From: Betaproteobacteria bacterium | GTDB taxonomy: Bacteria > Pseudomonadota > Gammaproteobacteria > Burkholderiales > Burkholderiaceae_C | Direction: 5' to 3' | NCBI GenBank assembly: GCA_050256835.1 | Contig: JBLMVT010000012.1 | Span: forward strand, 1 to 29,159 | Length of the DNA stretch: 29,159 bases | In this document: in pieces, positions 2,045 to 23,838 of the stretch | Layout of the letters: each line of letters begins with the position of its first letter | How positions within the stretch are numbered: the first letter of the stretch is position 1 | Position numbers and translations under genes: made by a program | Notes under the pieces: model-generated | Seen by the model: the letters and a program-made list of their open reading frames with translations, nothing else | What the model was told of the DNA's origin: nothing | Databases searched by the model: none

Positions 2045-2045
2045 G

Positions 2046-2426
2046 TCAGAGCGGCCTGCGGCCGCCGGCGAGGAAGCGCTGCACCGTGTCGAGGAAGGCC
2101 TTCAGCGCGATCGGCTTGGTGACGTAGGCGTCGAAGCCCGAGGCGACGATCTTCTGCTGCTCGTCGGGCATCACCGAGGCCGACACGGCGAGCACCGGCG
2201 TGGCCGCCAGGGCCGCGTCCTTGCGGATCGTGGCCAGCGCCGTGATGCCATCGATGTCGGGCAGCTGGATGTCCATCAGGATCAGGTCGGGGCGGCGCTC
2301 CGACGCCAGCCGCACGCCCTCCCCGCCGGTCACGGCCTCGATCGTGTCGTGACCCTGGTGGCGCAGGATGTCGCGCACCAGCTTCATGTTCTTTTCGTTG
2401 TCCTCGACGATCAGGATGGTGCTCAT
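2046..2426 (-). CDS. Single-domain response regulator (DivK/CheY-like), 126 aa
   Basis: MSTILIVEDNEKN...PDLILMDIQLPDIDG...DAYVTKP. ATG at 2426 overlaps the kinase stop (ATGA). The longer 2046..2795 ORF extension overlaps the kinase and is not credible. Confidence 0.93.
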   Translation of the reverse strand: MSTILIVEDNEKNMKLVRDILRHQGHDTIEAVTGGEGVRLASERRPDLILMDIQLPDIDGITALATIRKDAALAATPVLAVSASVMPDEQQKIVASGFDAYVTKPIALKAFLDTVQRFLAGGRRPL

Positions 2427-7372: not shown

Positions 7373-8339
7373 TCGATCACTTGGTCGGCGCCAAGCAGCA
7401 CCTGCTCGGCGACGTGCAGACCCTGGGCCCGCCCAGCCTTCAGGTTGACGACGAACTCGAACTTCGCTGGCTGCTGGACCGGCAGTTCCGCCGGACTCGC
7501 GCCGCGCAAAATGCGATCGACATAAACGGCCGCGCGCCGATACTGGTCGCGGAGGTCGACGGCGTACGACATCAGCCCACCGGCTTGCGTGAAGACACTG
7601 TGCGGATACATGGCCGGCCGTCGCAGCGCGGCGATCGCCTCGACGATGCCGCGGCGCGCAACGAAGTAGAGCGTGTCGTCCTGCACGAACCACGCATCTT
7701 CGGCCGCATGGGCCATGATGGCCGGCCGCAGTTGCTCCTCGGCGCCTGCCCGGGCAAAGGTGAGCCGCAAACCAAGCGACTGTGCCGCCCGCTCGGTCTC
7801 GGGCTGCGCTTCCGGTCGGCCCGACAGCACCGCGACGCGCGCGATGCCGGGGAATGCCTCCTTCAGCAGCTGCATGCGCTTGCCGATCAGCTCGTCGCTC
7901 AGCGTCGCGAAGCCAGTGAGGTTGCCGCCCGGTCGCGCCAGGCTCGCCACCAACCCCATGCCGACCGGCCTAGGGACCGCGGCAAACACGACGGGGATCG
8001 ATGACGTCGCCGCCCTGGCCGCCGCCGCCGCGTTGCCTCCTGACGCCAGGATCACATCGGGACGCTGAGCGACGATTGCCGAGGCCAATGCTGGAAAGCG
8101 CTCCACGCGACCCTCGGCGAAGCGACGCTCGAGCACGAGATCGCGGCCCTCGACCCAGCCTTGAGCGCCCAGCTCGCCCCAGAAAGCGTCCCAGATCGCC
8201 TGCGTCTCGGGCGAGTCGGGACGCGAATTGCCCAGCCAGCCGATGCGCGGCAAGGTGCCGCGCTCGCGCGCCCACACCGGCTGCAATGCGAACAAAGCGC
8301 TGGCTGCGAAGAAGGCACGGCGGGCGGTCATTCGATCAC
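7359..8339. repeat. 22-bp exact direct repeat CGGCGGGCGGTCATTCGATCAC at 7359-7380 and 8318-8339, each spanning a stop/start junction
   Basis: Read directly from the sequence. A shorter third copy (TCATTCGATCAC) starts at 9311. Confidence 0.9.
7369..8331 (-). CDS. ABC-type substrate-binding protein (ABC_sub_bind / Trp-Tyr-like family), copy 1
   Basis: PRIGWL, RFAEG, PDVIL, GMGLVASLARPGGNLTG, GGLMSY, PAELPVQQPAKFEFVVNLK, ADQVIE. Twin-arginine-like N-terminus (ARRAFF). Confidence 0.88.
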   Translation of the reverse strand: MTARRAFFAASALFALQPVWARERGTLPRIGWLGNSRPDSPETQAIWDAFWGELGAQGWVEGRDLVLERRFAEGRVERFPALASAIVAQRPDVILASGGNAAAAARAATSSIPVVFAAVPRPVGMGLVASLARPGGNLTGFATLSDELIGKRMQLLKEAFPGIARVAVLSGRPEAQPETERAAQSLGLRLTFARAGAEEQLRPAIMAHAAEDAWFVQDDTLYFVARRGIVEAIAALRRPAMYPHSVFTQAGGLMSYAVDLRDQYRRAAVYVDRILRGASPAELPVQQPAKFEFVVNLKAGRAQGLHVAEQVLLGADQVIE

Positions 8340-9314
8340 CCGGTCCACGCGCAGCAGGAACGCCGGCGGCAGCGCGATGCCGAGCGCGCCAGCGACCCGC
8401 CGGTTCACGACGAGTTCGAAGCGGTTGGGCTGCTCGACCGGAATGTCCGCCGGCTGCACGCCATTCAGCACCTTGTCGACCAGATGAGCGGAGCGGCGCA
8501 ACTGGTCGTCGAGCGCACCGCCGTAGGCGAACAGTGCGCCGCCCTCGACCGCCTGGCTGCGGGTCGCCACGACCGGCACGCCATGTGTCGAGGCCAGCGC
8601 CGCCAGGTGCGCCGCGAGGTTGCCAGCGAGCGTCGAGCCGGTGAGGACGACGTCGACCTTCTGGGCCAGCAGTCGGGTCAGGGCGGCCTCGGTCTGCGCC
8701 GGATTCGACCCCTCGGCAACGATCATCGTGAAGCCGAGGTCCGGCGCAACCGCCCTGATCGCCGCCAGGTCGAAGTTCGCCCGGGGGTCGCGCCGGTCAC
8801 CGATGTAGCCGATGCGCCGTGCAGCCGGCAGTGCCTCGCGTACCAGATCGAGCCGCTTCGGTCCCAGCGAATCGGCGATCGTGACGATCCCGGTCACGTT
8901 GCCGCCGGGTCGAGCCAGGCTGGCGACGAGTCCGGCGCCGATCGGATCGCTGCCGGTCGCGAACACGATCGGGATCGTCCGCGTGGCGGCGCGCGCAGCA
9001 ACCGCAGCGGACTGCGGCGGCGCATAGATCACCTGCGGCGCGCGCGCGACCAGTTCGGCGGCCGCCCGGGTCAGCACTTCGGCACGGTCGTCGCCATAGG
9101 CTCGGTCGTACTCGATGCTGCCGCCCTCGATCCAGCCGATGCGCCTCATCTCGTCGTAGAACGGTGCCAGCGTCGCTTCCTCCTTCGCGCGCGTGCTGGG
9201 CGCCAGCACGCCGACCTTGCGCACGATCCGGCGGGGGTCCTGAGCCAGCGCGTCGTGGCTGAACGGCTGAATCGTGGCAGCCAGCGCACCGGTGATGATC
9301 CGCCGGCGTTTCAT
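8328..9314 (-). CDS. ABC-type substrate-binding protein (same family), copy 2
   Basis: KVGVL, IPIVF, DPIGAGLVASLARPGGNVTG, PADIPVEQPNRFELVVN, DRVIE. N-terminus MKRRRII followed by a hydrophobic stretch. Confidence 0.88.
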   Translation of the reverse strand: MKRRRIITGALAATIQPFSHDALAQDPRRIVRKVGVLAPSTRAKEEATLAPFYDEMRRIGWIEGGSIEYDRAYGDDRAEVLTRAAAELVARAPQVIYAPPQSAAVAARAATRTIPIVFATGSDPIGAGLVASLARPGGNVTGIVTIADSLGPKRLDLVREALPAARRIGYIGDRRDPRANFDLAAIRAVAPDLGFTMIVAEGSNPAQTEAALTRLLAQKVDVVLTGSTLAGNLAAHLAALASTHGVPVVATRSQAVEGGALFAYGGALDDQLRRSAHLVDKVLNGVQPADIPVEQPNRFELVVNRRVAGALGIALPPAFLLRVDRVIE

Positions 9315-9391
9315 TCGATCACCCTGTCGGGGCGCAGCACGATCGACAGCGGCCCGAAGGGCCTCGCCGGTCGAGTCGCGTCGTCTTGCAT
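9311..9391 (-). pseudogene. 26-codon mini-ORF, probable internally deleted remnant of a fourth substrate-binding-protein gene
   Basis: Manual translation gives MQDDATRPARPFGPLSIVLRPDRVIE*. GGAGG lies 9 nt upstream of the ATG, the C-terminus matches the neighbours (LLRVDRVIE, LSRADEVIE), and its TGA overlaps the ATG of copy 2. Confidence 0.6.
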
Positions 9392-9455
9392 CACATCACC
9401 CCTCCGTGTCAGCGGGCCGGCCGCGCGGCGATTGTCGCCGCACGCAGCCGGACTT

Positions 9456-10478
9456 TCACTCGATGACTTCGTCCGCGCGCGATAGCAGCGTGTCGGGCAG
9501 TGCCAGGTCGAGCGCGCGCGCGGTGCGCAGGTTGACGACCAGCCTCAGGCGCGTCGGCCGCACGATCGGCAGGTCGCCGGCACGCGCCCCGCGCGAGAGC
9601 CGGTCGACGTAGGCCGCGACCTGCTGCCAGGCCTCGTCGAGCCCGACGCCGTAGGCCAGCAGGCCGCCGTCGCGCGCCTCTTCGGGCCATTCCCAGGCCG
9701 TCGGCAGGCGGTGCCGCACCGCCAGCGCGAGGAGCCGCCTGCGGTCGTGCAGGAACGCGGTCGACGCGCCGACCAGCACCGCCTGCACCTGCTCCGAGTC
9801 GAAGGTGTTGAAGACGCGCTCGTAGTCGCCGCGGCCCTCGACCTCGGCCACCGACAGCGCGACGCCCTGCGCCGCCGCCGCACGCTGCGCCCCGGCCACC
9901 TCGGGGCGCAGTGCCGGATCGGCGGGGACGATCAGGCCGAAGCGGGTCGCCTCAGGCAGGGCCTCGCGCAGCAGCGCGAGCCGGCGCGCGGCGAGCCCGG
10001 CACCGCTGCCGACCAGCACGCCGGTGAGGTTGGCGCCCGGCCGCTCGAGGCTCGACACCAGCCCCACCGCAATCGGATCGAAGTCGCCGACCATGACGAT
10101 CGGGATCGTCGTCGTGGCATCGCGCGCCGCCCGTGTCGCCGCGCTGCCGACCGCGACGATGACGTCGACGCGGTGCCGCACCAGCTCGCGCGCCAGCGCA
10201 GGGAGCCGCTCCTCGCGGCCGTCGGCGTGGCGGTTCTCGACGGCGAGGTTGCGCCCCGTGCGGTAGCCCAGCCGGCGCAGGCTGTGCAGCAGCAGCGCCG
10301 CCGAGCGATCGGCCGGCTCGAGCTCCGTCGGCCGCAGCACACCCAGGCGAAGCCGCCTCGCGAACGGCTGCGCACGCGCCGCCGGCGCGAGGAGCAGGCC
10401 GGCGATCCCGACCGCGAAGGCGCGACGCGAAGGAGCTGGGAACGGGCGACCGGCTTCGAGTGCGCGCGGCGGCGTCAT
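9456..10478 (-). CDS. ABC-type substrate-binding protein (same family), copy 3
   Basis: RLGVL, RHADGREERLPALARELV, IPIVM, DPIAVGLVSSLERPGANLTG, GGLLAY, ADEVIE. Tat-like SRRAF signal. The start is chosen at ATG 10478 (MTPPR) and is uncertain. Confidence 0.85.
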   Translation of the reverse strand: MTPPRALEAGRPFPAPSRRAFAVGIAGLLLAPAARAQPFARRLRLGVLRPTELEPADRSAALLLHSLRRLGYRTGRNLAVENRHADGREERLPALARELVRHRVDVIVAVGSAATRAARDATTTIPIVMVGDFDPIAVGLVSSLERPGANLTGVLVGSGAGLAARRLALLREALPEATRFGLIVPADPALRPEVAGAQRAAAAQGVALSVAEVEGRGDYERVFNTFDSEQVQAVLVGASTAFLHDRRRLLALAVRHRLPTAWEWPEEARDGGLLAYGVGLDEAWQQVAAYVDRLSRGARAGDLPIVRPTRLRLVVNLRTARALDLALPDTLLSRADEVIE

Positions 10479-10740
10479 TCGACGACTCTGCCCCCACGTG
10501 TCGGAACCGCCGGCGTCAGCGCCAGCCGGACGGTGGAACCGATCAGCGCCCTGCGGACGATCATGACTCACCCTGCTTCGCATTCGCCCCGAGCCGACGG
10601 ACGGGGCGCCACGTTACGCCGGCGCCGGACGGCGGTCAACGAAGCTGACTCCGGGCTGCGTTCGATTCGCGACCTGCCGCGAAGTGCCTAACATCGGCCC
10701 TTGTCGGCGTCATGCCCTCTCGCTCGCCCAGGAACACCCG

Positions 10741-11433
10741 GTGACCTTCGCAGACCTCATCACCAACGTGCAGGCGCTGATCGCGGCGGAGCTGTCCTCG
10801 CCGCTGGAGATCTTCGCCATCGTCGCGGGCTTCGTCGCCGGCGCGCTGATCGTCGTCAGCTCGTTCGTGCGCACCATGATCCCGCTGCGCTGGCTGGCGG
10901 TGGGCAGCAACGTCGGCTTCGTCCTCTACGGCGCGCTGCATCCATCGATGCCGATGCTGCTGCTGCATGCCATCCTGCTGCCGATCAACATCTTCCGCGC
11001 CCGCGAGATGGGGCGGCTGGCGCGCCGGGTGCGTGCCGCCGCGCGCGCGGCGGACCTGTCGGGCATCTGGCTCAAGCCGTACATGCGCAGCCGCCAATAT
11101 CGTGCCGGCACGGTCCTGTTCCGCAAGGGCGACCGCGCCGATCAGCTCTACTTCCTCGCGGAGGGCCGCATCGAGTTCGTCGAGATCGGCGCGATCATGG
11201 AGCCGGGCCGCATCTTCGGCGAGGTCGCGCTGTTCTCGCCCGAGCGCAAGCGCACGCTGACCGCGCGCTGCGTCGAGAAGTGCAAGGTGCTGTCGATCGA
11301 CGAGGCGAGCGTCGAGCAGCTGTACTTCCAGAACCCGGCGTTCGGCTTCAAGCTGATCGGGCTGGTCGCGGGGCGGCTGTCGGCCGACGTGCGCCGGCTG
11401 GAGGACCGGCTCGCCAACGCGACCTCGGCGTGA
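10741..11433 (+). CDS. Membrane protein with about three N-terminal TM helices and a C-terminal cyclic-nucleotide-binding (CAP/cNMP) domain, no HTH
   Basis: GTG start with AGGA 7 nt upstream. Hydrophobic segments LEIFAIVAGFVAGALIVVSSFV, WLAVGSNVGFVLYGAL and MLLLHAILLPINIF. cNMP motifs LFRKGD, LYFLAEGRI and FGEVALF...RT. Confidence 0.88.
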   Translation: MTFADLITNVQALIAAELSSPLEIFAIVAGFVAGALIVVSSFVRTMIPLRWLAVGSNVGFVLYGALHPSMPMLLLHAILLPINIFRAREMGRLARRVRAAARAADLSGIWLKPYMRSRQYRAGTVLFRKGDRADQLYFLAEGRIEFVEIGAIMEPGRIFGEVALFSPERKRTLTARCVEKCKVLSIDEASVEQLYFQNPAFGFKLIGLVAGRLSADVRRLEDRLANATSA

Positions 11434-11436
11434 GCG

Positions 11437-14400
11437 TCATTGCGGCGGCGACTCCAGCTGCCGCTGCTCGAACAGGTAATCCCCGCCGCCCTGATCGCCG
11501 GCCGCACCGAAGGCGCCGTACTGCGGACGCTGCGGCAGCGCACGGGCGACCGCGAATCGCACGCGCTCGAAGACGTTGCCTCCCGGCTGCCACTTGGACA
11601 GCTGACGCAGGTTGTTCATCAGGTTCCAGGCAAACGGCGAATGCCCGTCCTTGCCCTCGTCGGCCACCGGCTCGTTGCCGCCCGAGGACATCACCACCAC
11701 CGATCTGCGCGACAGCACCTGCTGCGGATCGATCGTGCCGGGGGTCGCGCGAATGCGCTGGCCGACCAGCGAGCCGGAGTAGCAGCTGTCGGAGATCAGC
11801 GCGACCTGCGACGCGTCGAACAGCTTTGTGAGGCGGCCGATGTCGGTGTTCGACAGCCAGGTCTGCGGCCGCTTCGCGTCGCTGTCCGAGAGCAGCCAAT
11901 AGCCCAGGCCGGTGGAATCGATCAGCTGGCCGTGTCCGGCGTAATAGACGACCACCGAATCCTGAGGATCGAGTGCGAGGGCCAGCTGGTTCAGGGCGGC
12001 CACCACCGTCTGCTTGGAGGGGTTCTCGAGCACGATCGACTCGTAGCCCAACTGGGACTCGAAGATGCGGCCGATGGCCTGCGCATCCCCCACGGCGTTC
12101 GACAGCTGCGGAATCTCGGCGTCGGTGTACCGGTTCACGCCGATCACCAGCGCCACCTTGCGCACGATCTGGGGCAGGTTCGCCACCTTGACCCGCGGCG
12201 TGGGCAGATGCAACAGGGCCGCGGGAAGTTCGGCCGCCGCCGGACGGGCCGCGGCCGCAGTGCTGGCCACTGCTGCCGGCGCGGGTGCCGGAGCAGGCGC
12301 CGGTGTCGGTGCAGCGGCCGTCGCGGCGGGCGGCTTTTCGGTCGGCTTGGCGCCACCCGGCGCAGTCAGCGACGGCGCGGCGAGCGTCTTGCCCGGCCTG
12401 GCTGCCTGCATCTCGCGCTTCATGTCGGCCGTGATCAGGCAGGTGCCGCTGGTCAGATCCTGCGGGCTCTGGCAGGCCGGGAGGTCGGCCAGCGTCGGGT
12501 CCTGCTCCAGCTCGTGGATCGAGTCGGAGAAGATGGCCTTCTTGTAGTTCGCGCGCGAGTCCAGCATGCCCTGCAGCGCGCTTGGCGACAGGTCGCTCAG
12601 GCGCACCGGTGCGAAAGCGCCTGCTCCGGTCGATGGCGGCGTGGTGGAGGACGGCGGGCTGGCCACCGGCATCAGGTTCACCAGGCCGGCCTGGGTCGGG
12701 TCGGCGACGGCCAGCGGTGGCGCGACCGCCTGCCGCGCGAGCAGCGGTGCCCCGGTGCTGACCGCGACCGAGTCCTGCGCGGGGCTGATCCCGCTGTAGT
12801 TCAGGGCCGTCGCATTGGCCGGGTCCTGCGCGAAGACGTAGTTGGTGGCGCCCAGCCCGCCACCGAGGATCGGGTAGGCGCCGGGCAGCGATTGCGCCGT
12901 CGCGGTGGTGGTGAAACTCGGGGCACCGGTGGTGGCGCCTTGCAGCGTCTCGCCGCCCACGAACCCGTAGACGGTGCCGGTCAAGGCAGGCAGGGGCGTT
13001 CCTGCGGGCCAGGTCACGGGCGTGGCCAGGTAGTACAGCGTGGCCGGGTCGATGTTCGCCGTCGTCGTGAAGGACGCAGGCAGCACGTAGTTGGCAGCGT
13101 CGGGGCCCGTCAGGCCCAGCCCGGTGATCGCCACCGTCTTGCCGGTGCCCACGTTCGGGTCGCTGAAGCTGGCCGTCGGGCTGCCCGAGACGGCTACCGA
13201 GTCGCTGCCCAGCGGCTTCACGCTCGCCGTGCCGCTGAGCGTGGCCAGCGAGGTTGCGTCGTAGACCTTGTTGTTGGCGCTGAGTCCGCTGACCGCCAAC
13301 GATGCCGGCGTGATGTCGGCGCTGAGACCCGACGCGACGGGGAGGTAGTTGCCCGCGTCGGCGCCAGTGAGACTCAGCGCGCTGATCGAGACGCTCTTGG
13401 CCGTGCCGACGTTCTTGTCCGAGAAGGTCCCCACCGGGGTTCCGGATACGGACACCGAATCGTTGCCCAGCGGCGTCACGCTTGCCGTGCCGCTCAGCGT
13501 GGCCGCCACGGTTGCGTCGTACACCTTGTTGTTGGCCACCAGCCCGCTGACCGCCAGCGACGCCGGCGTGATGTCGGCGCTGAGGCCGCTCGGCTGGAGC
13601 ACGCTGTAGTTGCCCGCATCGGTGCCGCTCAGTGTGAAGCCGCTGACGGTGACGCTCTTGGCGGTGCCCACGTTCTTGTCCGCGAAGCTTGCCGACGGTC
13701 TGCCCGCGACGGCCACCGAGTCGCTGCCGAGCGGCGTCACGCTCGCGATGCCGCTGAGCGTGGCCAGTGTCGTCGTGTCGTAGATCCTGTTGTTGGCACT
13801 GAGGCCGCTGACGGACAGGAACGCCGGCGTGATGGTGCCGGGCGCCGTCAACGTCGGCGCGACGCTGTAGTTGCTGGCCAAGCCTCCGTTGCTGCCGTTC
13901 GTCAGGCCGATGGCAACCGAAAGATCGTACGTGCCCACGTCCTTGACCGGAAACGCGGCGACGCTGGTGACCCCGAGCGTTTCCGAACCCACCAGTCCGC
14001 TCGTCACCGTCGCGACGGGGTGGGCTAGCGTGGTCGCGTCGTACACTTTGTCCAGGCCGGTCACGGCGACGGTCACCGGTGCCTGGGCGATGCTTCCGCG
14101 CAGCAGGTACTGTGGCAGGTAACCGTAGACCGGCTTCTGGTTGGCGTCGACGAACTGCAATGAAAGGCCGTTCAGCGTGACGTCGTTGTTGGTGCCCGCA
14201 TTGGGACTGGCGAAGTCCGCGCCGCTGAAGCTCAGCCCCACGGCCTGGTCCTGGTTCACCCCTGTGGCGGCAACGTTGGTGACCGTGGCCGTCGTCGTGG
14301 CGTCGTAGGTCTTCGTCTGCACGCTGCCGGTGATGGTGGCGAACTCGGGCGTCGAGAACGCCAGGCCGTTGCCGACGTCGCTGGCGATCGCCGTGTCGCC

Positions 14401-17130
14401 CGGCAGCGCGTTGTAGCGCTTGAAATCGAAGGCAAGCCCGCCCGTATTGAACGTCACGGGGTCGGTGGCGAACAGCAGCCAGCGGCTGTTTGGCGTCGAC
14501 AGCACCGCGGAGCCGACCTGGTTGTCGAAGGCCTGTATGGCGCCGGTACCCGCACCCTGCAGCACCAGCGCCGTCGTTCCGGCAAAGTTGCTGGTGATGC
14601 TGGTGCCGCTGCCGAGCACCAGAGCGTCGGCATGCACCGTGATCGGCCCGCCGGACGTGATCTGCGAATTGGTCAAGCTGAGCGTCTGCCCCCCGTACAG
14701 CGTGAAGGGCACGCCGTTCACGTCGGCCGGGTTCGCGCTGACGAACGCGTTGGACAATTGCGTACTCGTCGCGACGCCGCCGATGGTCAGCGTCGTGCCG
14801 CCCGAGACGTCGATGACGTTGGTGGTGTACCCCGGGCCGACGATGTTCACGGCCGCCGTGCCGGACGCAGCGGTGGTCCCGTCGATGTCCACCGAGCCAC
14901 CCGTCTTGTCGAAGACGAGGCTGAACGTCGTCTGCGAGCCGTCGAGCAGCACGCCCTCGTTCTGTTGGCCGGCGCCGAACAGGCGCAGCGAGGCGGGGGA
15001 GAACGAGTTGGTGAGGATCAGCTGGCTTTCCAGGCCGATGGCGATGCCCTGGGTGGTGCCCATGCCTCGCAGGTCCATCGTCTGATCGGCCTCCAGCGTC
15101 GCGAGGCTCGTGCCGATGCCGGGGCCCGTCGTGCCGAAGTCCGCCGTGTTGCCGTTGATCACGATATTCCTGGCCAGCAGGTTCGAGTTTGAGAGGGACA
15201 CGCCCGAGCCCGTACCCTGGTACCTGCTGCCGCCGTTGGCCGTGATCGTGCCGGCGAGTGCGGTGAGGTCCGCCGTACTGAAGTCGACGCCCGTCGGGTG
15301 GCTGGCGTCGTAGCCGGTCGCACCCTGGAACGTGCCGCCGCCCGCCCGGTTGTAGTTGGTGAAACCGCCGAAGGTGATGTCGCCGTTCTGCAGGGTGATC
15401 GTGGTGTTCGGCAGCTGGATCGCGCCCGACCCGCTGCGCCCCGCGAGGAAGGTCAGGGGCATCGACGCGCCCTGGAAGGTCAGCGTGCCGTTGACGGAGA
15501 TGGAACGGTCGGCGATGAAGGTCAGGCTGGCGCCGGTCCCGGCATTCACCGGCGGGCTGCCCAAGATGTTGATCGCGATGTCGCCGGCCTGCGTGCCTTC
15601 GCTGCCGGTCGCGCTGGTGGACACCGTGACCTGCGTGCCGGCTGCGAGGGCGCTGCTGATCGTGCTCCAGGTGATGACGGCGCTGTCGGCGTTGGCGGTG
15701 AACGAGGCGTCGGTGCCCTGGTTGATGGCAGCGGGATCATCGGTCACCGTGACGTCGTACGGGTCCAGCAGCCAGCTGCCGTTGTGCCCGTAGGGTGCAG
15801 AGATGTCGACGCGCACCGGCCGCGCGTCCAGCCAGCCGCCGGAGGTCTCGATGAAGCCGCCGTCGCCGCCCAGCGGTCCGCCGCGCGCGCTGAGGCTGCC
15901 GAAGGCGCGCGTCGCTTCGTCGCTCCACAGGATGATCCGGCCGCCGTCGCCGCTGGCCGTGGCGTCGGCCGTGATGCCGGCCTGCGGGCCGAAGTAGACG
16001 GCCTGGGCATTGGGCACGTTGGGGTCCTTGCCCTGCTCGCCGCCGCCGACCAGCACCTCGCCGCCGCCGCCGGCACCCGACACGTCCACCCGTGCGGCGT
16101 CGAGCAGGCCGACCTGCCGGCCCAGCAGCTGGATCTGCCCGCCTGCATCTTGCGATCCCGTGGCGCTGACCGTGCCGCGCACCATGGTCTGGTCGGCCTC
16201 CAGCGTGATCCTGCCGCCGCTGCCGCCGTTCGCCGTGGTCTGGCTGGCCGCGCCAAGGTTCAGCTGGTCGCGCGCGCGCAGCACCACTTCGCCGCCGGGG
16301 CCGCGCTCCAGCGCGTCGGCACGCATGATGCCGTCCTGGTTGACGGTGGCAGCATGGATGTCGATGCGCCCGCCCGCCGCCAACAGTTGCCCCAGGTTGA
16401 GGACGTTGCCTTCGCCGGCATTCACCTTGACGCCGACGTTCGGTGTTGCTGTGTCCAGCAGTTCGACGTCCGATCCGGCGGCGAGGACGATCTGGCCACC
16501 GGGGGCGGTGATGTCCCCTTCGTTGCGCACCGTGCCGCCGATCAGCGCGACGTGGCCGCCGAAGCTGCTGCGCAGATCGCCCTGGTTGACGACGTCCGCG
16601 GCCGGACCGCTGCCCTGCGTGAAGCGGTAGCGGCCGGCCAGCCAATCGGTGTCGTTCAGGTTCAGCGTCGACGTGACCAGGCTGGCCACGTCGATGCGTG
16701 CCCCCTGGCCGAACAGCACGCCGTTCGGGTTGAGGAGCCAGACGCGGCCGTTGCTGCTGAGGCCGCCGAGAATGGACGAGGGGTCCGTGCCGGTGACGCG
16801 GTTGAGCACCTGGCTGCTGGCGCTCGACTGCTCGAAGCGCACCGCGTTCTGCGCGCCGATCGAGAAGCTGTTCCAGTTCAGGATGGTGCCCGGGGAGTTG
16901 GTGATCGTGAGCGTGTTGCCGACCGTGCGCGCCGACGCCTGCCCGGCCACGGTGCTCATGCCCGACGGCAGGGTCTGCGCCTGCAACGTGGTGGCCCCGG
17001 GCCACAAGGTCAGCAGCGAGCCGGCGGCCAGCGCGTGCGCCAGACGACCGAGGCGCAGGGGCGGTCGTGCAGATCGCGACCGGTCGGCGGCAAGTGGGCG
17101 GGTGCTGGAACGTCCCTGGGGGTACTTCAT
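11437..17130 (-). CDS. Two-partner-secretion passenger (TpsA, HMW1/FHA-like), 1897 aa, with YDG-type repeats, an MBG-like domain and a C-terminal caspase-family (C14) domain
   Basis: Signal peptide, then TPS domain (ILNWNSFSIG, VLNRV, WLLNPNGVLFG), GG-rich beta-helix repeats and GSWLLDP. Five K/RxYD repeats follow, then a Pro/Ala linker. C14 motifs: KVALVIGVNRY, AVGDA, YYAGHG (His1733), ISDSCYSG (Cys1783), HSPFA. Confidence 0.9.
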   Translation of the reverse strand: MKYPQGRSSTRPLAADRSRSARPPLRLGRLAHALAAGSLLTLWPGATTLQAQTLPSGMSTVAGQASARTVGNTLTITNSPGTILNWNSFSIGAQNAVRFEQSSASSQVLNRVTGTDPSSILGGLSSNGRVWLLNPNGVLFGQGARIDVASLVTSTLNLNDTDWLAGRYRFTQGSGPAADVVNQGDLRSSFGGHVALIGGTVRNEGDITAPGGQIVLAAGSDVELLDTATPNVGVKVNAGEGNVLNLGQLLAAGGRIDIHAATVNQDGIMRADALERGPGGEVVLRARDQLNLGAASQTTANGGSGGRITLEADQTMVRGTVSATGSQDAGGQIQLLGRQVGLLDAARVDVSGAGGGGEVLVGGGEQGKDPNVPNAQAVYFGPQAGITADATASGDGGRIILWSDEATRAFGSLSARGGPLGGDGGFIETSGGWLDARPVRVDISAPYGHNGSWLLDPYDVTVTDDPAAINQGTDASFTANADSAVITWSTISSALAAGTQVTVSTSATGSEGTQAGDIAINILGSPPVNAGTGASLTFIADRSISVNGTLTFQGASMPLTFLAGRSGSGAIQLPNTTITLQNGDITFGGFTNYNRAGGGTFQGATGYDASHPTGVDFSTADLTALAGTITANGGSRYQGTGSGVSLSNSNLLARNIVINGNTADFGTTGPGIGTSLATLEADQTMDLRGMGTTQGIAIGLESQLILTNSFSPASLRLFGAGQQNEGVLLDGSQTTFSLVFDKTGGSVDIDGTTAASGTAAVNIVGPGYTTNVIDVSGGTTLTIGGVATSTQLSNAFVSANPADVNGVPFTLYGGQTLSLTNSQITSGGPITVHADALVLGSGTSITSNFAGTTALVLQGAGTGAIQAFDNQVGSAVLSTPNSRWLLFATDPVTFNTGGLAFDFKRYNALPGDTAIASDVGNGLAFSTPEFATITGSVQTKTYDATTTATVTNVAATGVNQDQAVGLSFSGADFASPNAGTNNDVTLNGLSLQFVDANQKPVYGYLPQYLLRGSIAQAPVTVAVTGLDKVYDATTLAHPVATVTSGLVGSETLGVTSVAAFPVKDVGTYDLSVAIGLTNGSNGGLASNYSVAPTLTAPGTITPAFLSVSGLSANNRIYDTTTLATLSGIASVTPLGSDSVAVAGRPSASFADKNVGTAKSVTVSGFTLSGTDAGNYSVLQPSGLSADITPASLAVSGLVANNKVYDATVAATLSGTASVTPLGNDSVSVSGTPVGTFSDKNVGTAKSVSISALSLTGADAGNYLPVASGLSADITPASLAVSGLSANNKVYDATSLATLSGTASVKPLGSDSVAVSGSPTASFSDPNVGTGKTVAITGLGLTGPDAANYVLPASFTTTANIDPATLYYLATPVTWPAGTPLPALTGTVYGFVGGETLQGATTGAPSFTTTATAQSLPGAYPILGGGLGATNYVFAQDPANATALNYSGISPAQDSVAVSTGAPLLARQAVAPPLAVADPTQAGLVNLMPVASPPSSTTPPSTGAGAFAPVRLSDLSPSALQGMLDSRANYKKAIFSDSIHELEQDPTLADLPACQSPQDLTSGTCLITADMKREMQAARPGKTLAAPSLTAPGGAKPTEKPPAATAAAPTPAPAPAPAPAAVASTAAAARPAAAELPAALLHLPTPRVKVANLPQIVRKVALVIGVNRYTDAEIPQLSNAVGDAQAIGRIFESQLGYESIVLENPSKQTVVAALNQLALALDPQDSVVVYYAGHGQLIDSTGLGYWLLSDSDAKRPQTWLSNTDIGRLTKLFDASQVALISDSCYSGSLVGQRIRATPGTIDPQQVLSRRSVVVMSSGGNEPVADEGKDGHSPFAWNLMNNLRQLSKWQPGGNVFERVRFAVARALPQRPQYGAFGAAGDQGGGDYLFEQRQLESPPQ
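13050..14320 (-). repeat. Five YDG-type repeats, period 258-264 bp
   Basis: The Tyr codon (forward GTA) of each YD motif falls at 13261, 13519, 13780, 14041 and 14305. Motifs are NNKVYDATS, NNKVYDATV, NNRIYDTTT, LDKVYDATT and QTKTYDATT. Each unit contains D(K/P)NVGT, KDVGT or PNAGT and an NY-like motif. Confidence 0.85.
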
Positions 17131-17215
17131 GGCCTGACACCTCTCGAAGAAGACGCAGTCGCTCGGTCGAGGCGTGCGGCGTCGACCGTCATGCGAGGGA
17201 GCCCGAGTTCTCGAC

Positions 17216-18814
17216 TCATTGGAAGCTGTAGATCAGCTGCAGATGCGCGCGGTTGTCGCCTCTCTCGGTGAGGTTGCCGTTCTTCAGTGCGTGCGCCAGG
17301 TCCAGTCGAAACTGCAGGTTCTGCCAGTCCAGGCGCGTGCCCAGCCCGACAGCGGCCAGCGTGCAGGACGACTGTGCGTCGCGGCAAGGGGTGTTCAGCC
17401 GATTCCAGACCTTGCCGGCATCAACGAAGCCAAGCAGACGCAACGCCGACTTCGGGCTTGCGGTGGCCGGGAGCAGGCTCGGCGAGTACAGCTCCAACGT
17501 GGCGCTGACGCCGCTGTCGCCGGTGATTTCGCGTTCCTCGTAGCCGCGCACGCTGGTCGACCCGGCAATGCTGAACTGCTCGCCATTGACCAGGCCGTCG
17601 TCGGTCCATTGCCCGGCGATGCGCCCGCTGATCTGCCAATGCCGCGGCAAGGCCCGGGCCGCAAAGCCGCCCAAGCGCACCAGGCTGTAGTCGCGCGACG
17701 CGCCTGGACGCGCCGCCTCGTAGTGGGCCGCGTCGGCATGGCTGCCGCCCAGCGCGAGGTTGTGCGTCAAGCCGGCATTGAAGCCGAGAGCCCGTTCGCC
17801 GCCGCGCTGCAGGGTGTAATCCAGCGACAGTGGATTGACCGTCACGCTGGCGCCGGGGCTGCCGCAGGCGCCGGGGGGCAGGCCGGCGATGGTGCAGTCG
17901 TTGTTGTAATCGCGGCGGTCCAGGCCGAGCGACAGTCGGTGGTCGAACTCGCCGATGCGCTCCAGGTGCTTGTTGAGCCGCACGCCCAGCATCTGGCCGC
18001 GGCCGCTGAACTGCAGCGCGCCGGCCGCGGTGGCGGTGGTGCCGTTGTCGACGTCGGAACGCACACCGAAGAAATCGACCGTCATGCCACGCTCATAGAG
18101 TGGAACGTGGTAGCTGGCACTAAAGACGGCCACGGAACTGGGCTTGTCCGGGGATGTCTGCAGCAGAAGCGACAGCACGTGGTCCAAGTCCCACAAGGCG
18201 GCGTTCTGGTACATCAGGCTGGCGCGCAGACGTCCCGTGTTGCTGTTGCCGGTGTTGTCCAGCGCCACCGACCAGCGACGCGCGGGCTGCTCGCTGACGA
18301 CGATGTGGGCCTCAACGTCACCCGGTTGCTGGCCTGCCTCGAGGGACAGCGCCAGCTGTTTGGCGGGGTTCTCGTTAGCCAACTGGATCTCGGTGTCGAT
18401 GCGCCGCACCGGCGGCGTCTTGCCCTCCACCAGCTGCGGCAGGCTGCGGCGAATGTTCGCCTCGCTGAACTGCTGGTTGCCGGAAACGACCACCAGCGCC
18501 AGACGGCCTTCGAGCACGGCGATGGTGACCCGCCCGGGTGTGCCGGACTGCGGCGGCAGGTAGGCCACCACGGCGCCGTAGCCGGCATCACGGTACAGCG
18601 ACTGGACTGCCTGAGCCGCCTGTTTGAGCTCGTCCAGCGTGCGTTCGCCCTTGAATGGCGCCAGGGCGGCAGCCACGGCCTGCGCGGGCAGCAATGTGTT
18701 CCCGGTGACGACAAACTCTTCGACCAGGACGCGCGGTTGCTGCGCCTGGACCTGGATCGCGATGCCCAGGATGAGCCCGCAGGCCAACCGATGAATGATG
18801 CTTCTTGTCGTCAT
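17216..18814 (-). CDS. TpsB outer-membrane transporter (ShlB/FhaC/HecB family), 532 aa
   Basis: Signal peptide MTTRSIIHRLACGLILGIAIQVQA with AGGTG upstream. POTRA segments (FVVTGNTLL, YRDAGY, VLEGRL, SGNQQFS), SVALDNTGNSNTGRLR, the conserved VRGY loop motif (SVRGYEE), FVDAG, and an aromatic C-terminus (LIYSFQ). Directly upstream of tpsA and co-oriented with it. Confidence 0.92.
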   Translation of the reverse strand: MTTRSIIHRLACGLILGIAIQVQAQQPRVLVEEFVVTGNTLLPAQAVAAALAPFKGERTLDELKQAAQAVQSLYRDAGYGAVVAYLPPQSGTPGRVTIAVLEGRLALVVVSGNQQFSEANIRRSLPQLVEGKTPPVRRIDTEIQLANENPAKQLALSLEAGQQPGDVEAHIVVSEQPARRWSVALDNTGNSNTGRLRASLMYQNAALWDLDHVLSLLLQTSPDKPSSVAVFSASYHVPLYERGMTVDFFGVRSDVDNGTTATAAGALQFSGRGQMLGVRLNKHLERIGEFDHRLSLGLDRRDYNNDCTIAGLPPGACGSPGASVTVNPLSLDYTLQRGGERALGFNAGLTHNLALGGSHADAAHYEAARPGASRDYSLVRLGGFAARALPRHWQISGRIAGQWTDDGLVNGEQFSIAGSTSVRGYEEREITGDSGVSATLELYSPSLLPATASPKSALRLLGFVDAGKVWNRLNTPCRDAQSSCTLAAVGLGTRLDWQNLQFRLDLAHALKNGNLTERGDNRAHLQLIYSFQ

Positions 18815-18923
18815 TGATTCACCTACGGAGCGCCGTCGGCATCCGGCCCGAATCCGGCACGCACGAACGATCAGGAATTGGGACCAACAACGGTTGGGTT
18901 CGACAATACCGATGAACCCGCGT

Positions 18924-18938
18924 GCAACGACTCGTTGC
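18924..18938. promoter_or_regulatory. Perfect palindrome GCAACGA-C-TCGTTGC in the tpsB/ompA divergent intergenic region; candidate operator
   Basis: 7-bp inverted arms with a 1-nt centre, seen directly. Function is inferred only. Confidence 0.3.
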
Positions 18939-19190
18939 GGCAAGGACGATCCGCCTAGCCTCGAGCTACTTCCCCACCGAGGCATTGTGCGGGCAAGGCC
19001 ACGCGATCGCGCGATCGGCGCGAAGAAAATGCGCGGACTCGGGCGGCGGATCGATCAGCGGTCGTCCACTCGCGCGCCTGCGCGAGATCGGCTGCACACG
19101 GGAATCGGCATGGAACCAGCCCTGCGTTTGCGTAGTGGCGGAGGCTCGACGGCACGGTGTATTCTTTCGAGCCACATCGAGGGGGATCCC

Positions 19191-19763
19191 ATGAACATCG
19201 GAAAGCAGCATCTCTGCACCTGCCTCGTCGCAGTCGCGCCCTGGATGCTGGGCAGTGCATTGGCGCAGGAGCCGGTGCTCAAGGGCAAACAGGTCACCGA
19301 GTCGGCGCTCATCGACGCGCTGTCGGTCGATGCGCCCGCCGGGGCCGTGCAAGGCGGGACGCGGGGCTTGGTCCTGTCTTCCAAGCATGCGGGTCCATCC
19401 AAGGCCACCAAGGCGGGTCCGGGCAAGGCGTCCTTGCTGATCACGTTCACGGAGGGCTCGGCCCAACTGACGCCCGAATCGATGTCGATTCTGGACACGC
19501 TGGCCAAGGCGCTCGCGTCGGATCAGCTCGCGGGCAACACGTTTCGGGTCGAAGGGCACGCGGATCCGCGCGGCACCGAAGAGGGCAATGTTCGTCTTTC
19601 GCAGGAGCGCGCCGAATCGGTCGTCGACTATCTCGTCAACAAGCACGGCCTCCTGCCGGAGCGCCTCTCGGCAGTGGGCAAGGGTTCGACCGAATTGGCC
19701 AACCCGGACCGGCCAGACGCACCTGAGAACCGCCGCGTGACCATCGTCACCAAGCGCGAATGA
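19191..19763 (+). CDS. Exported OmpA C-terminal-like (peptidoglycan-binding) domain protein, 190 aa
   Basis: GAGGGG upstream of the ATG; signal peptide ending ALA-Q; ITFTEGSAQL, FRVEGHADPRG, NVRLSQERAESV, GKGS, NRRV. Confidence 0.9.
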   Translation: MNIGKQHLCTCLVAVAPWMLGSALAQEPVLKGKQVTESALIDALSVDAPAGAVQGGTRGLVLSSKHAGPSKATKAGPGKASLLITFTEGSAQLTPESMSILDTLAKALASDQLAGNTFRVEGHADPRGTEEGNVRLSQERAESVVDYLVNKHGLLPERLSAVGKGSTELANPDRPDAPENRRVTIVTKRE

Positions 19764-19905: not shown

Positions 19906-22900
19906 TCACGCGCGCAGCTGCGTCAGGACCTTCTCCAGCCGCCTGACGCTCACCGGTTGGGGCGTGCGCAGCTCCTGCGCGAACAGGCCGACGCGCAGCT
20001 CCTCGAGCAGCCAGCGGAACTCGTCGAGGCGCGCGTCGTGCGCCCCGCGCCGCTCGGCGACGAGTCGTTCCCAGCGCTGCTCGAGCGGGCGCAGCTCGGC
20101 CAGGTGCCGGGCATCGCGCTGCGGATCGGCGCGCAGCTTGTCGAGCCGTCGCTGCACGGCCTCGAGGTAGCGCACCATGTGCGGCAGCTGTACTGCCGGC
20201 GTGTCGACGACGAAGCGGGCCGGCAGCAGCCGCGCGAGCTGGGCGCGGATGTCGTCGGCGACCTCCTTCGGCGGGCGGCTGTCCTTGAGCTTGCGTTGCG
20301 CGGCAGCGTAGCCGGCGAGCACCGCTGCGGCCTGGCGCGCGATCTCCTGCGCGATCAGCGTCAGCCGCGGTCGTCCCTCGGCGAGCCGCGCGTCGAAGCT
20401 CGCCGCGTCGTGCGGCAGCGGCTCGGCGAGGAAGGCGCGGTCGAGCGCGGCCTCGACGATCTGCCCGCGCAGTTCCTCGGCCGTGCCCAGCCCCAGATAG
20501 GCCACCGCCATCTGCTGCAGGCCGGAGATGTTCTTCTCGAGGTGCTTGAGCGGCTCCTTCAGCTGCAGCGCGACGAGGCGCCTCAAGCCCGCACGGTGCC
20601 GCTCGACGGCGACCTGCGGCTCGTCGAAGACCTCGATCGTCACGTGATCGCCGCGGTCGATCAGCGCCGGAAAGCCGACCAGCGACGCGCCGCCCCTGGC
20701 GCCCGGCACCTCCATCAGTTCGGGCAGCTCGCCGAAGGTCCAGGCGGTGTAAGTCACGTCGCGCGTGTGACCCTCACCCCCACCCTCTCGCGCCAGCGGG
20801 GGAAGGACGGCCGCCTCACTCCCTCTTCCCCCGGGAGAGGGTTGGGGTGCGGGCCGCGGCGCGATCGCCTCCTTCACCCGCAGTCCGGCCAGCGCCTGGA
20901 ATGCCGAGCGTGCCTGGCCACCGAGCTCGGCCTTCAAGGCGGCGACGTGGCGGCCCATGCCGAGCTGGCGGCCGTGCTCGTCGACGATGCGCAGGTTCAT
21001 GAACAGATGCGCCGGCACCTGGTCGAGCTTGAAGTCAGCGCGCTGCACGGGCAGCTGGCTGCGTTCGCGCACTGAACGCAGCAGAGCGTCGATCAGGTCG
21101 CCCTCGCCGAACGTCGTCGCCTCGACGAAGGCGCGGGCGAATTCCGGCAGCGGCAGCAGCCGCGAGCGCGGGCGCTGCGGCAGGCTCTTCGCGAGCGCCA
21201 CCACCTTGTCCTTCAGCATGCCGGGCACCAGCCATTCGCAGCGCTCTTCGCTGACCTGGTTGAGCGCATACAGCGGCACCGTCACGGTGACGCCGTCGCG
21301 CGGGTCGCCGGGTTCGTGCAGGTAGCCGGCAGCGCAATCGATGCCGCCGAGGCGCACCAGGCGCGGGAAAGCGTCGGTGGTGATGCCCGCGGCCTCGTGG
21401 CGCATCAGCTCGTCGCGCGCCAGCATGAGCAGCCGCGGCTGGCGCCTGACCTCCTGCCGGTACCAGCGTTCGAGCGCCGCGCCGCCGGTGACGTCGGCCG
21501 GCAGCATGCGGTCGTAGAAGGCGAAGATCAGTTCCTCGTCGACCAGCACGTCCTGCCGGCGCGACTTGTGCTCCAGCTCCTCGACCTGGCGTACCAGCTT
21601 GCGGTTGTGTTCGAGGAACGGCAACCGGCTGTCCCAGTCGCCTTCGACCAGCGCGGCGCGGATGAACATCGCGCGCGCGGCGACCGGGTCGACAGTGGCG
21701 TAGGCGACGCGCCGGTCGTTGTAGACCACCAGTCCGTACAGGGTCGCACGCTCGAGAGCGACCACCTCGCCGGCCTTCTTCTCCCAGTGCGGCTCGAGCA
21801 GCTGCTTCTTCAGCAGGTGGCCGGCGACGCCGGGCAGCCAGCGCGGGTCGATCGCCGCCAGGCCGCGGCCGAACAGCCGCGTCGTCTCGACCAGCTAGGC
21901 CGCGACGATCCAGCGGCCCGGCTTGCGGCACAGATGCGTGCCGGGGTGGCGCCAAAAGCGGATGCCGCGCGCACCCAGGTACCACTCGTCCTCGTCGCTC
22001 TTCACGCCGACGTTGCCCAGTAGTCCGGCGATCAGCGCGAGGTGGATCTGCTCGTAGGTCGCCGGTGCGGCGTTGAGCCGCCAGCCGTGTTCGGCGACCA
22101 CGGTGTGCAGCTGCGAATGGATGTCTCGCCACTCGCGCACTCGGCGCGGGCTGATGAAGTGCTCGCGCAGGCGCTGCTCCTGCTGGCGGTTGCTGAGCTT
22201 GTGCACCGGGCCGTCGGCCGGCCCCTGGCCTCGCCCCGCCTCGATCCAGCGCCACAGCCTGAGCGTGCCCATGAACTCCGACTTCTCGTCGTCGAAGGGC
22301 TTGTGCTTTGCGTCGGCCGCGGCCTGCGCCTCGAGCGGGCGGTCGCGCACGTCCTGCCCGGCCAGCGCCGCGGCGATGACGAGCACCTCGCCCAGCGAGC
22401 CGCGCTCGCGCGCCTCGAGGATCATGCGGCCGATGCGCGGGTCGAGCGGCAGCTTCGCCAGCTCGCGGCCGATCGCGGTCAGCTCGTTCGCGTCGTCGAC
22501 GGCGTTCAGCTCGCCGAGCAGCGCGTAGCCGTCGGCGACGGCGCGCCGTGGCGGCGGGTCGATGAAAGGAAACTCCTCGACCGCGCCGAGCGCCAGCGCC
22601 TTCATGCGCAGGATCACGCCGGCCAGCGACGAGCGCAGGATCTCCGGGTCGGTGAAGCGCGGACGGGCGGCGAAGCCGGCCTCGTCGTAGAGCCGGATGC
22701 ACACGCCGTTGGCGATGCGTCCGCAGCGCCCGGCGCGCTGCTGGGCCGCGGCCTGGCTGATCGGCTCGACCTGCAGCTGCTCGACCTTGTTGCGCCAGCT
22801 GTAGCGCTTGACGCGCGCCAGCCCGCTGTCGATCACGTAGCGGATGCCGGGCACGGTGAGCGAGGTCTCGGCGACGTTGGTGGCGAGCACGATGCGCCGC

Positions 22901-23838
22901 GCCCCGCCGCTGGCGAACACGCGGTCCTGCTCGGCCTGCGACAGCCGCGCATAGAGCGGCAGCACCTCGACCGCGCCGCGGTGCGCGCTCGCCAGGTGCC
23001 GGCGCAGGTGGTCTGCGGCCTCGCGGATCTCGCGCTCGCCGGGCAGGAAGACGAGGATGTCGGCCGGGCCGCCGGGCTGCGGCCCGCGCCAGAGCTCGTC
23101 GACCGCATCGGCGATGGCGTCGTTCAGGTCGTGGTCGCGGCGCTCCTCGAACGGCCGCCAGCGCTGCTCGACCGGGAACAGACGTCCCGACACTTGGATC
23201 ACCGGCGCCGGACCGGCGCCCGAAGCGAAGTGCTGCGCGAAGCGGTCGGCGTCGATCGTCGCCGACGTGACGACGACCTTCAGGTCGGGCCGCCTCGGCA
23301 ATAGCTCGCGCAGGTAGCCGAGCAGGAAGTCGATGTTCAGGCTGCGCTCGTGCGCCTCGTCGATGACAAGCGTGTCGTAGGCGGCGAGCAGCGGGTCGGA
23401 CTGGGTCTCGGCGAGCAGGATGCCGTCGGTCATCAGCTTGACCGATGCGCCCGGCTGCAGCCGGTCCTGGAAGCGCACCTTGTAGCCGACCACCTCGCCG
23501 AGCGGCGTCTGGAGTTCCTCGGCGATGCGCCGCGCCACCGAGCTGGCGGCGATGCGGCGCGGCTGGGTGTGGCCGATCAGCGGTCCGCGCCCGCGCGCGT
23601 CGCGGGCGCGACCGCGACCCATGGCCAGCGCGATCTTCGGCAGCTGCGTGGTCTTGCCCGAGCCGGTCTCGCCGCAGACGACGATGACCTGGTGGTCGCG
23701 CATCGCGCGCGCGATCTCGTCGCGCCGCGCGGACACGGGCAGCGACTCGGGGAAGGTGATCGGCGGCAGCGGTGCGAGCGTCGCTGCGCGGGGCGACGGG
23801 GCGGGGTTCACGGCAGGCGGCGGATTATCGGGGAGCAC
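19906..23838 (-). pseudogene. hrpA: ATP-dependent RNA helicase HrpA (about 1310 codons) interrupted by one in-frame TAG at 21895-21897
   Basis: [48 protein letters not shown]. ORFs 21895..23838 and 19906..21765 share one frame, and reading through gives WIVAA*LVETTRLFGR. The HrpA C-terminus RWLLEELRVGLFAQEL is present. The start may be GTG 23811. It could be an intact gene with a sequencing error. Confidence 0.85.
20771..20853. repeat. 83-bp REP/CIR-like palindromic element inside hrpA coding sequence
   Basis: Arms CCCTCACCCCCACCCTCTCGC (20771-20791) and GGGAGAGGGTTGGGGTGCGGG (20833-20853) are inverted repeats matching at 18 of 21 positions, and each end also folds locally. Confidence 0.75.

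Follow-up and report, generated by a model that had tools for sequence, protein, structure and literature searches.

A two-partner secretion exoprotein ending in a caspase-like domain and its linked OmpA-like protein in Burkholderiales: a candidate periplasmic retention module

Some exoproteins of two-partner secretion (TPS, type Vb secretion) are held at the cell by their own C-terminus. In HMW1, HxuA and CdrA a small, disulfide-bonded C-terminal module stays in the periplasm and holds the exoprotein TpsA at its transporter TpsB, and CdrA of Pseudomonas aeruginosa is shed when the periplasmic cysteine protease LapG cuts this tail (PMC5422565, PMC13405001). Here we describe a TPS unit whose TpsA carries a caspase-like protease of its own behind a conserved cysteine pair, and which includes a gene for an OmpA-like partner protein. 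The unit lies in a stretch of 29,159 nucleotides with about 70% G+C (contig JBLMVT010000012.1 of assembly GCA_050256835.1; hereafter the window), part of a metagenome-assembled genome (MAG) that is 78% complete and holds a single tpsA-caspase copy. We tentatively propose, at somewhat less than an even chance, that the fibre is exported while the stapled cysteine module and the protease stay in the periplasm as a stopper, latched to the peptidoglycan-bound partner, and that proteolysis releases the fibre or sends a signal. The system is thus favoured to be type Vb secretion with a periplasmic retention module, in which the built-in protease and the dedicated cell-wall partner would be new.

TpsA resembles the hooks of HMW1, HxuA and CdrA in that its cysteine pair is conserved, delimits a small loop near the C-terminus and follows an otherwise cysteine-free shaft. 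It differs from the CdrA/LapG system in that the protease is part of TpsA itself and belongs to another clan (C14 as opposed to the C93 family of LapG), that TpsA has no TAAG site, and that the unit has a linked partner gene with a conserved motif of the peptidoglycan-binding type. LapG as a protease acting in trans was considered and proved uninformative: besides the missing TAAG site, LapG-like genes (PF06035) occur in three of five complete carrier genomes in no clear pattern, and PF06035 was not found in the 78%-complete host genome.

A second likeness is to TpgA-AtaA of Acinetobacter sp. Tol5, in which an OmpA-like peptidoglycan-binding protein encoded beside a type V fibre reportedly tethers the inner end of the fibre to the cell wall. 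AtaA is said to be a trimeric autotransporter (type Vc) without a protease, unlike the tpsA-caspase unit. The NCBIfam model NF047726, which we take to name the TpgA family, matches only the OmpA domain of our partner, and weakly (E 5e-7), which makes the likeness an analogy and not homology of the whole proteins. The protease itself compares with type I metacaspases, orthocaspases and MALT1 of family C14 (PDB 3bij for GSU0716), with GSU0716 as the bacterial example; it shares with them the caspase fold, the His-Cys dyad and probably two acidic pocket residues, a combination that would imply cleavage after Arg/Lys. Its identity to solved C14 structures is only 15-21%, and, unlike the studied members, which are cytoplasmic, it stands at the C-terminus of a two-partner secretion exoprotein that bears a signal peptide.

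The exoprotein and its caspase-like tail

TpsA (P0001) is encoded on the reverse strand at 11437..17130 by 1897 codons plus stop. It begins with a leader and Sec signal peptide (residues 1-51, 16978..17130) that, judging from the translation, is probably cleaved at ...LLTLWPGATTLQAQ/TLPSG. The TPS secretion domain that follows (residues 51-258, 16357..16980) scores 98.7 bits against PF05860 (cut-off 33.5), is confirmed as a filamentous-haemagglutinin N-terminal domain by NCBIfam (TIGR01901, 76.5 bits) and carries the TPS-domain motifs LNRV at residue 109 and NPNG at residue 134. The Gly/Thr/Ser-rich shaft (residues ~259-930, 14341..16356) was delimited by its composition; it has no Pfam match, and a beta-helix is presumed there from TpsA biology. 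A stalk occupies residues ~931-1480 (12691..14340), with YDG (PF18657) matching in five stretches (216 bits) and MBG_2 (PF18676) spanning residues 1377-1439. The tail is composed of a helical "hook" module (residues 1507-1577, 12400..12612), a Pro/Ala-rich disordered linker whose alignment is gapped and variable (residues 1578-1644, 12199..12399), and the C14 caspase-like domain (residues 1645-1897, 11440..12198), within which Peptidase_C14 (PF00656) spans residues 1657-1871 with 75.4 bits against a cut-off of 21.4. All Pfam matches in TpsA exceed the curated cut-offs. The original prediction had read the order tpsB, then TPS domain, beta-helix, five YDG repeats, MBG-like domain, cysteine pair, Pro/Ala linker and C14 domain in the 1897-residue TpsA, and open reading frames and Pfam bear this out; the motifs it quoted (AGHG, DSCYSG, AVGDA and the Cys-pair segment) are all present as it described them.

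TpsA has three cysteines in total. Cys1553 (12472-12474) and Cys1564 (12439-12441) lie in the segment LPACQSPQDLTSGTC of the hook module, and the third is the catalytic Cys1783 (DSCYSG; 11782-11784), paired with the catalytic His1733 (AGHG; 11932-11934). All four residues are invariant in 70 aligned sequences. Among gene copies taken from genomes, the catalytic cysteine is kept in 80 of 80 and the histidine in 79 of 80, and the cysteine pair of the hook in all 55 copies in which the alignment reaches it.

An AlphaFold2 (AF2) model of residues 1498-1897, built with 70 homologues (pTM 0.83), resolves the helical module with the cysteine pair, the disordered linker and a domain of caspase fold. 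In the helical module pLDDT is 92-97, and a beta-bridge flanks both cysteines, as would be expected for a disulfide staple. The linker is mostly below 50 (~1582-1632) and rises towards the caspase domain, where means over blocks of ten residues reach ~77-98. Foldseek aligned the caspase domain with the paracaspase MALT1, the fungal and plant metacaspases Yca1 and AtMC9 and the bacterial GSU0716 (probability 1.00, E 1e-10 to 1e-8), and a profile search matched 3bij and AtMC4. A narrower assignment to the EACC1-associated caspases (NCBIfam NF047832) was rejected on score, the domain reaching 75.1 bits against a cut-off of 140.

Two aspartates were proposed in the original prediction to match an acidic S1 pocket, and the alignments are in keeping with this. 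Asp1682 (NAVGDA; 12085-12087) aligns with the Asp of the metacaspase GCxND motif (AtMC4 and the family profile), Asp1781 (11788-11790) is the Asp of D-x-C two residues before the catalytic cysteine, and both are kept in 80 of 80 gene copies. They probably correspond to the pocket residues of TbMCA2. The members of C14 other than animal caspases cleave after Arg or Lys owing to such an acidic pocket (PMC5756287). As far as the sequence tells, TpsA thus ends in a complete C14 domain that is apparently active and would have a pocket of the Arg/Lys type.

A search with TpsA residues 1500-1897 matched 307 proteins, and nearly all of the best 120 of these matches have TPS, YDG, MBG_2 and Peptidase_C14. 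Family proteins are 1062-3105 amino acids long: the stalk varies in length and the tail is constant, the last ~400 residues being 47-83% identical among at least 120 of them. A scan of genome loci, with one genome per species, found the architecture in 78 loci, almost all from Burkholderiales and including complete chromosomes. An assembly chimera, which had been named as a way in which the prediction could fail, is therefore ruled out, the same architecture being present in at least 120 proteins from independent assemblies and in the 78 loci.

The OmpA-like partner and its predicted contact with the tail

The partner gene (P0004; 19191..19763, forward strand, likely start 19191) encodes 190 amino acids plus stop and matches PF00691 with 82 bits. 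Besides a Sec signal peptide, its product shows a conserved N-terminal helix (VTE.ALIDAL), an invariant arginine in a TRGF-like loop (Arg190 in the numbering of P0004; 19362-19364) and an OmpA_C-like domain. Across 45 orthologues of 56-65% identity, D98, R113 and the positions N106-L109-S110-R113-A114 of the OmpA domain are invariant, with the NxxLSxxRA motif and the D...R pair present. We take these to be the putative peptidoglycan-binding residues, and on the strength of the conserved motif the partner would bind peptidoglycan.

The transporter gene tpsB (P0002; 17216..18814, reverse strand, in a frame open to 18985) encodes ShlB, POTRA_2 and Omp85 domains (PF03865, PF08479, PF01103) with a visible VRGY loop motif; its likely start is Met58 at 18814, which is followed by a signal peptide. 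It stands 5' of tpsA in every related locus that reaches far enough. Between tpsB and the OmpA-like gene lies a divergent intergenic region of 376 bp (18815..19190), presumably a shared control region. The divergent layout of ompA, tpsB and tpsA, with this intergenic region, recurs in the closest relative amid quite different flanking genes, and therefore the three genes travel together.

Linkage was counted over 77 tpsA-caspase gene copies with enough flanking DNA. In 41, an OmpA-like gene is encoded at most 2.5 kb 3' of tpsA; 36 of these genes share its strand and lie 33-217 bp past the tpsA stop, and five are nearby on the opposite strand. Two loci (L011, L014) have a tandem tpsA-caspase pair followed by one ompA-like gene, and in several genomes with two separate tpsA-caspase copies the partner adjoins only one. 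Conversely, in a sample of 250 genomes of the host's family, all eight genomes with an OmpA-like gene above 170 bits have one adjoining tpsA-caspase, and the 78%-complete host genome has no close paralogue of the partner. The original prediction had placed ompA in the unit, and this stands as to linkage and membership, with the gene on the forward strand and divergent from tpsB. That no immunity-sized gene follows tpsA is true of the window but does not extend to the 36 related copies, in which the 190-residue OmpA-like gene takes that place. No conserved small gene was seen 3' of tpsA in the loci that lack ompA, only spurious high-GC reading frames and convergent housekeeping genes (ferrochelatase, a membrane transporter-like reading frame).

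The complex of the 400-residue TpsA tail with the mature partner was predicted together with three controls. The ipSAE values were 0.71, 0.70 and 0.71, compared with 0.08 for the best control; 58 of 80 solved complexes attain this mark, as against 2 of 110 mismatched pairs, a comparison that is only rough here since our own alignments were used. On the tail side the confident part of the predicted interface is formed by the His loop (1731-1736) and the Cys loop (1781-1784), a loop with the sequence SGGNEPVAD, and portions of the helical module and the pocket-forming segment. The partner contributes, among others, residues 26-37, which carry the invariant arginine. The prediction supports binding of tail and partner and would fit a partner that serves as substrate, as pseudo-substrate latch or as inhibitor. 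Given a Sec-exported partner with a putative cell-wall-binding domain, the predicted contact also argues that the caspase domain would be periplasmic at least at some stage.

Location and task of the caspase tail

We envisage a type Vb unit of three genes, for TpsB, TpsA-caspase and the OmpA-like partner. TpsB would export the N-terminal 1500 residues of TpsA, with TPS domain, beta-helix and YDG/MBG stalk, as a surface fibre, and the last 390 residues would be retained in the periplasm. There, a disulfide between Cys1553 and Cys1564 would staple the helical module, which together with the folded protease could serve as a stopper, so that the fibre stays threaded in TpsB. The Pro/Ala spacer would reach towards the cell wall, where the putatively Arg/Lys-specific protease would dock, via its active-site cleft, on the invariant-Arg loop of the partner; the partner, bound to peptidoglycan, would tie the inner end of the fibre to the wall. 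The proposed switch is proteolysis, either of the Arg loop or within the TpsA tail, by which the fibre would be unlatched or shed or its state reported.

The original prediction had instead seen a surface-displayed protease on a long stalk. We do not favour this, because five lines point to a periplasmic C-terminal module: the invariant cysteine pair lies in a folded module upstream of the protease; a Pro/Ala spacer follows this module; a Sec-exported partner with a conserved motif of the peptidoglycan-binding type is conserved beside the gene; the predicted docking site of the partner is the active-site cleft; and the caspase domain has its nearest relatives in Sec-exported proteins with tetratricopeptide (TPR) or Sel1 repeats. 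These nearest non-TpsA relatives have reading frames of ~450-800 amino acids, and Sec signal peptides are present in both that were inspected of the five nearest. Several points weigh against a retained tail. Its periplasmic location is something we infer, and globular domains at the C-terminus, CdiA toxins among them, can be exported by TpsB proteins. In the known cases the hook sits at the very end of the protein, while here 333 residues, linker and caspase domain, follow Cys1564. No autoprocessing site could be located in TpsA. The complex prediction yields interface residues and not residue pairs, so that an arginine in the S1 pocket is not demonstrated by it, and the interface positions are no more conserved than the remainder of the domain. 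Finally, 36 of the 77 evaluable copies have no OmpA-like gene 3' of tpsA, five of these having one elsewhere in the locus, and four of the 12 strong carriers in the 250-genome sample have no close OmpA-like orthologue. The partner is thus frequent and not obligatory, being absent in one more distant clade and in some other loci.

If the whole of TpsA were exported, the protease would act outside the cell on a long stalk, where self-release, the trimming of matrix or adhesins, and attack on neighbours or hosts would be possible tasks, and the OmpA-like protein would be a periplasmic inhibitor or chaperone that holds it in transit. We consider this unlikely, while acknowledging that TPS systems do export enzymes and C-terminal effectors, e.g. 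the LepA protease and CdiA toxins (PMC5422565), that the catalytic residues are under strong purifying selection, that a loop predicted in the active-site cleft suits an inhibitor as well as an anchor, and that many family members have no OmpA-like gene. An inhibitor, however, has no obvious use for a conserved OmpA domain of the peptidoglycan-binding type, and the nearest caspase-domain relatives are Sec proteins of a periplasmic type. The invariant cysteine pair in a folded module before the protease resembles known secretion-arrest hooks (PMC5422565). In hook-anchored TpsA fibres such as CdrA, moreover, the distal tip is the N-terminus (PMC13405001), which would leave an enzyme at the C-terminus away from the tip. 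A toxin delivered into neighbouring bacteria by contact-dependent inhibition, with the OmpA-like protein as its immunity protein, would explain why in 36 related copies a gene for 190 amino acids comes next after tpsA in the same orientation, like cdiI after cdiA, and why its product is predicted to cover the active site; moreover, C-terminal caspase-like toxin domains have been proposed in polymorphic toxins by comparative genomics (PMC3482391). The same survey lists Tox-Caspase for the type II, VI and VII secretion systems and for PVC, not for type V (PMC3482391). The C-terminal domain of our family is not polymorphic and keeps 50-80% identity across more than 100 proteins, a motif search found no VENN, VDNN or ELYN pretoxin motif in TpsA, genomes with two copies often have a single OmpA-like gene (L011, L014), and nearly half of the copies (36/77) have none downstream. 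Compared with CdiB/CdiA/CdiI, no gene like cdiI is seen: tpsA is followed by a convergent cyclic-nucleotide-binding gene in the window and by an OmpA-family gene in relatives. We regard contact-dependent inhibition as very improbable.

A further explanation agrees with periplasmic retention in all but its output: caspase tail and partner might report tension on the fibre, contact or injury of the envelope to a Ser/Thr kinase of the inner membrane, whose DUF4384 domain is periplasmic and which in turn governs a type VI secretion system (T6SS). A gene for such a kinase with DUF4384 stands 5' of tpsB in nine of 30 related loci with enough upstream DNA, and the T6SS genes tssA/tssB in five to six of these 30. 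On another contig of the host genome (C221; L093 2332-4688), there is a DUF4384 protein, truncated at the contig end, that shares 48% identity with the tpsB-flanking kinase of relatives; its gene immediately precedes one for a fused VipA/VipB-like T6SS sheath protein. DUF4384 is elsewhere fused to bacterial caspase homologues (PMC7475262). The link is missing in the window, in the closest relative and in most loci, and the counts, taken from related genomes, lack independence. It is real in a minority of loci and not shown for the window, and we judge signalling to a kinase improbable as the task of the tail. The fuller version, in which the caspase tail is a mechanical or proteolytic sensor that, on a pull at the fibre or a disturbance of the envelope, cuts the Arg loop of the partner or its own tail, frees the fibre and signals the DUF4384 kinase to arm the T6SS, we hold to be quite improbable; if true, a bacterial caspase would here be the basis of a hitherto unknown path by which surface contact leads to the firing of a weapon. 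The reading that we prefer remains a periplasmic tail that retains the fibre and whose proteolysis would release it or give a signal.

Neighbouring genes, distribution and relevance

A gene for a membrane cyclic-nucleotide (cNMP)-binding protein (10684..11433, forward strand) is convergent with tpsA and ends 3 bp from the tpsA stop, as the original prediction had noted for the convergent gene. It was considered as a member of the unit and this is not supported, the gene being missing from all related loci; it is part of the adjoining block of binding-protein, kinase and cyclase genes. This block (947-10583) comprises three genes for ABC-type substrate-binding proteins, one for a 1756-residue Cache/HAMP/six-GAF histidine kinase and one for a response-regulator cyclase; it is missing from all related TPS loci and is therefore a separate module. 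Genes related to cyclic nucleotides thus occur near the TPS unit at 10684-11433 and 947-2044. Two Rubrivivax-type loci (L067, L074) have an adenylate/guanylate cyclase with FHA domain ~1.5-4 kb 3' of the tpsA-caspase gene, preceded in L067 by a convergent ferrochelatase, and similar reading frames are found 3' of tpsA in seven further Rubrivivax-related loci, by clustering only. The presence of cyclase and cNMP genes near tpsA-caspase loci may be coincidental. Elsewhere in the window, hrpA (DEAH helicase; 19906-23838, reverse strand) is broken by one in-frame TAG at 21895-21897 (WIVAA*LVETT), where its homologues presumably have Glu; the TAG reflects a nonsense mutation or else an error in the MAG consensus.

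Two loci hold related arrangements. In one (L085, G042 contig C72, 3122-6354), a Sel1/coiled-coil/caspase protein with Sec signal, one of the nearest non-TpsA relatives of the caspase domain, is encoded convergently to an OmpA-like orthologue that is 54% identical and keeps the Arg loop; there are no TPS genes nearby, and upstream are genes for an autotransporter and a lipase. Together, caspase and OmpA-like protein may form a periplasmic module that is portable. In the other (L089, G141 contig C2, 5422-8471), tpsB is followed by a gene for signal peptide, Pro-rich segment, cysteine pair and caspase domain with neither TPS domain nor stalk, which may be a minimal or decayed form.

Carriers include the genera Roseateles, Piscinibacter, Ideonella, Rubrivivax, Aquincola, Aquabacterium and Leptothrix. 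In the 250-genome sample there were about 12 strong carriers, and a 99%-complete genome of the host's own genus gave no strong tpsA-caspase match. The unit is therefore accessory and patchily distributed.

Family proteins bear only database names such as "YDG domain-containing", "filamentous hemagglutinin family" and "caspase family". The original prediction knew of no characterised TpsA-caspase fusion, and full-text searches of the literature likewise gave us no functional study or description of one; nor is the architecture among those listed in a 2012 survey of prokaryotic metacaspases. Discussion of caspase homologues in bacteria usually treats them as cytoplasmic proteases of cell death or defence, and few have a known substrate. 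If the periplasmic reading is true, this family has a caspase homologue that resides in the envelope as part of a secreted fibre and has a conserved candidate partner or substrate. Arg190 is a specific residue that can be mutated, which makes the function of the caspase-partner pair directly testable. Release in type Vb secretion is so far known through unlinked proteases such as LapG and SphB1, and the tail, again if the reading is true, would add a self-contained device for retention and release. The family is common in Burkholderiales of freshwater, soil and activated sludge, including Piscinibacter (Ideonella) sakaiensis, and therefore it may bear on the formation of flocs and biofilms.

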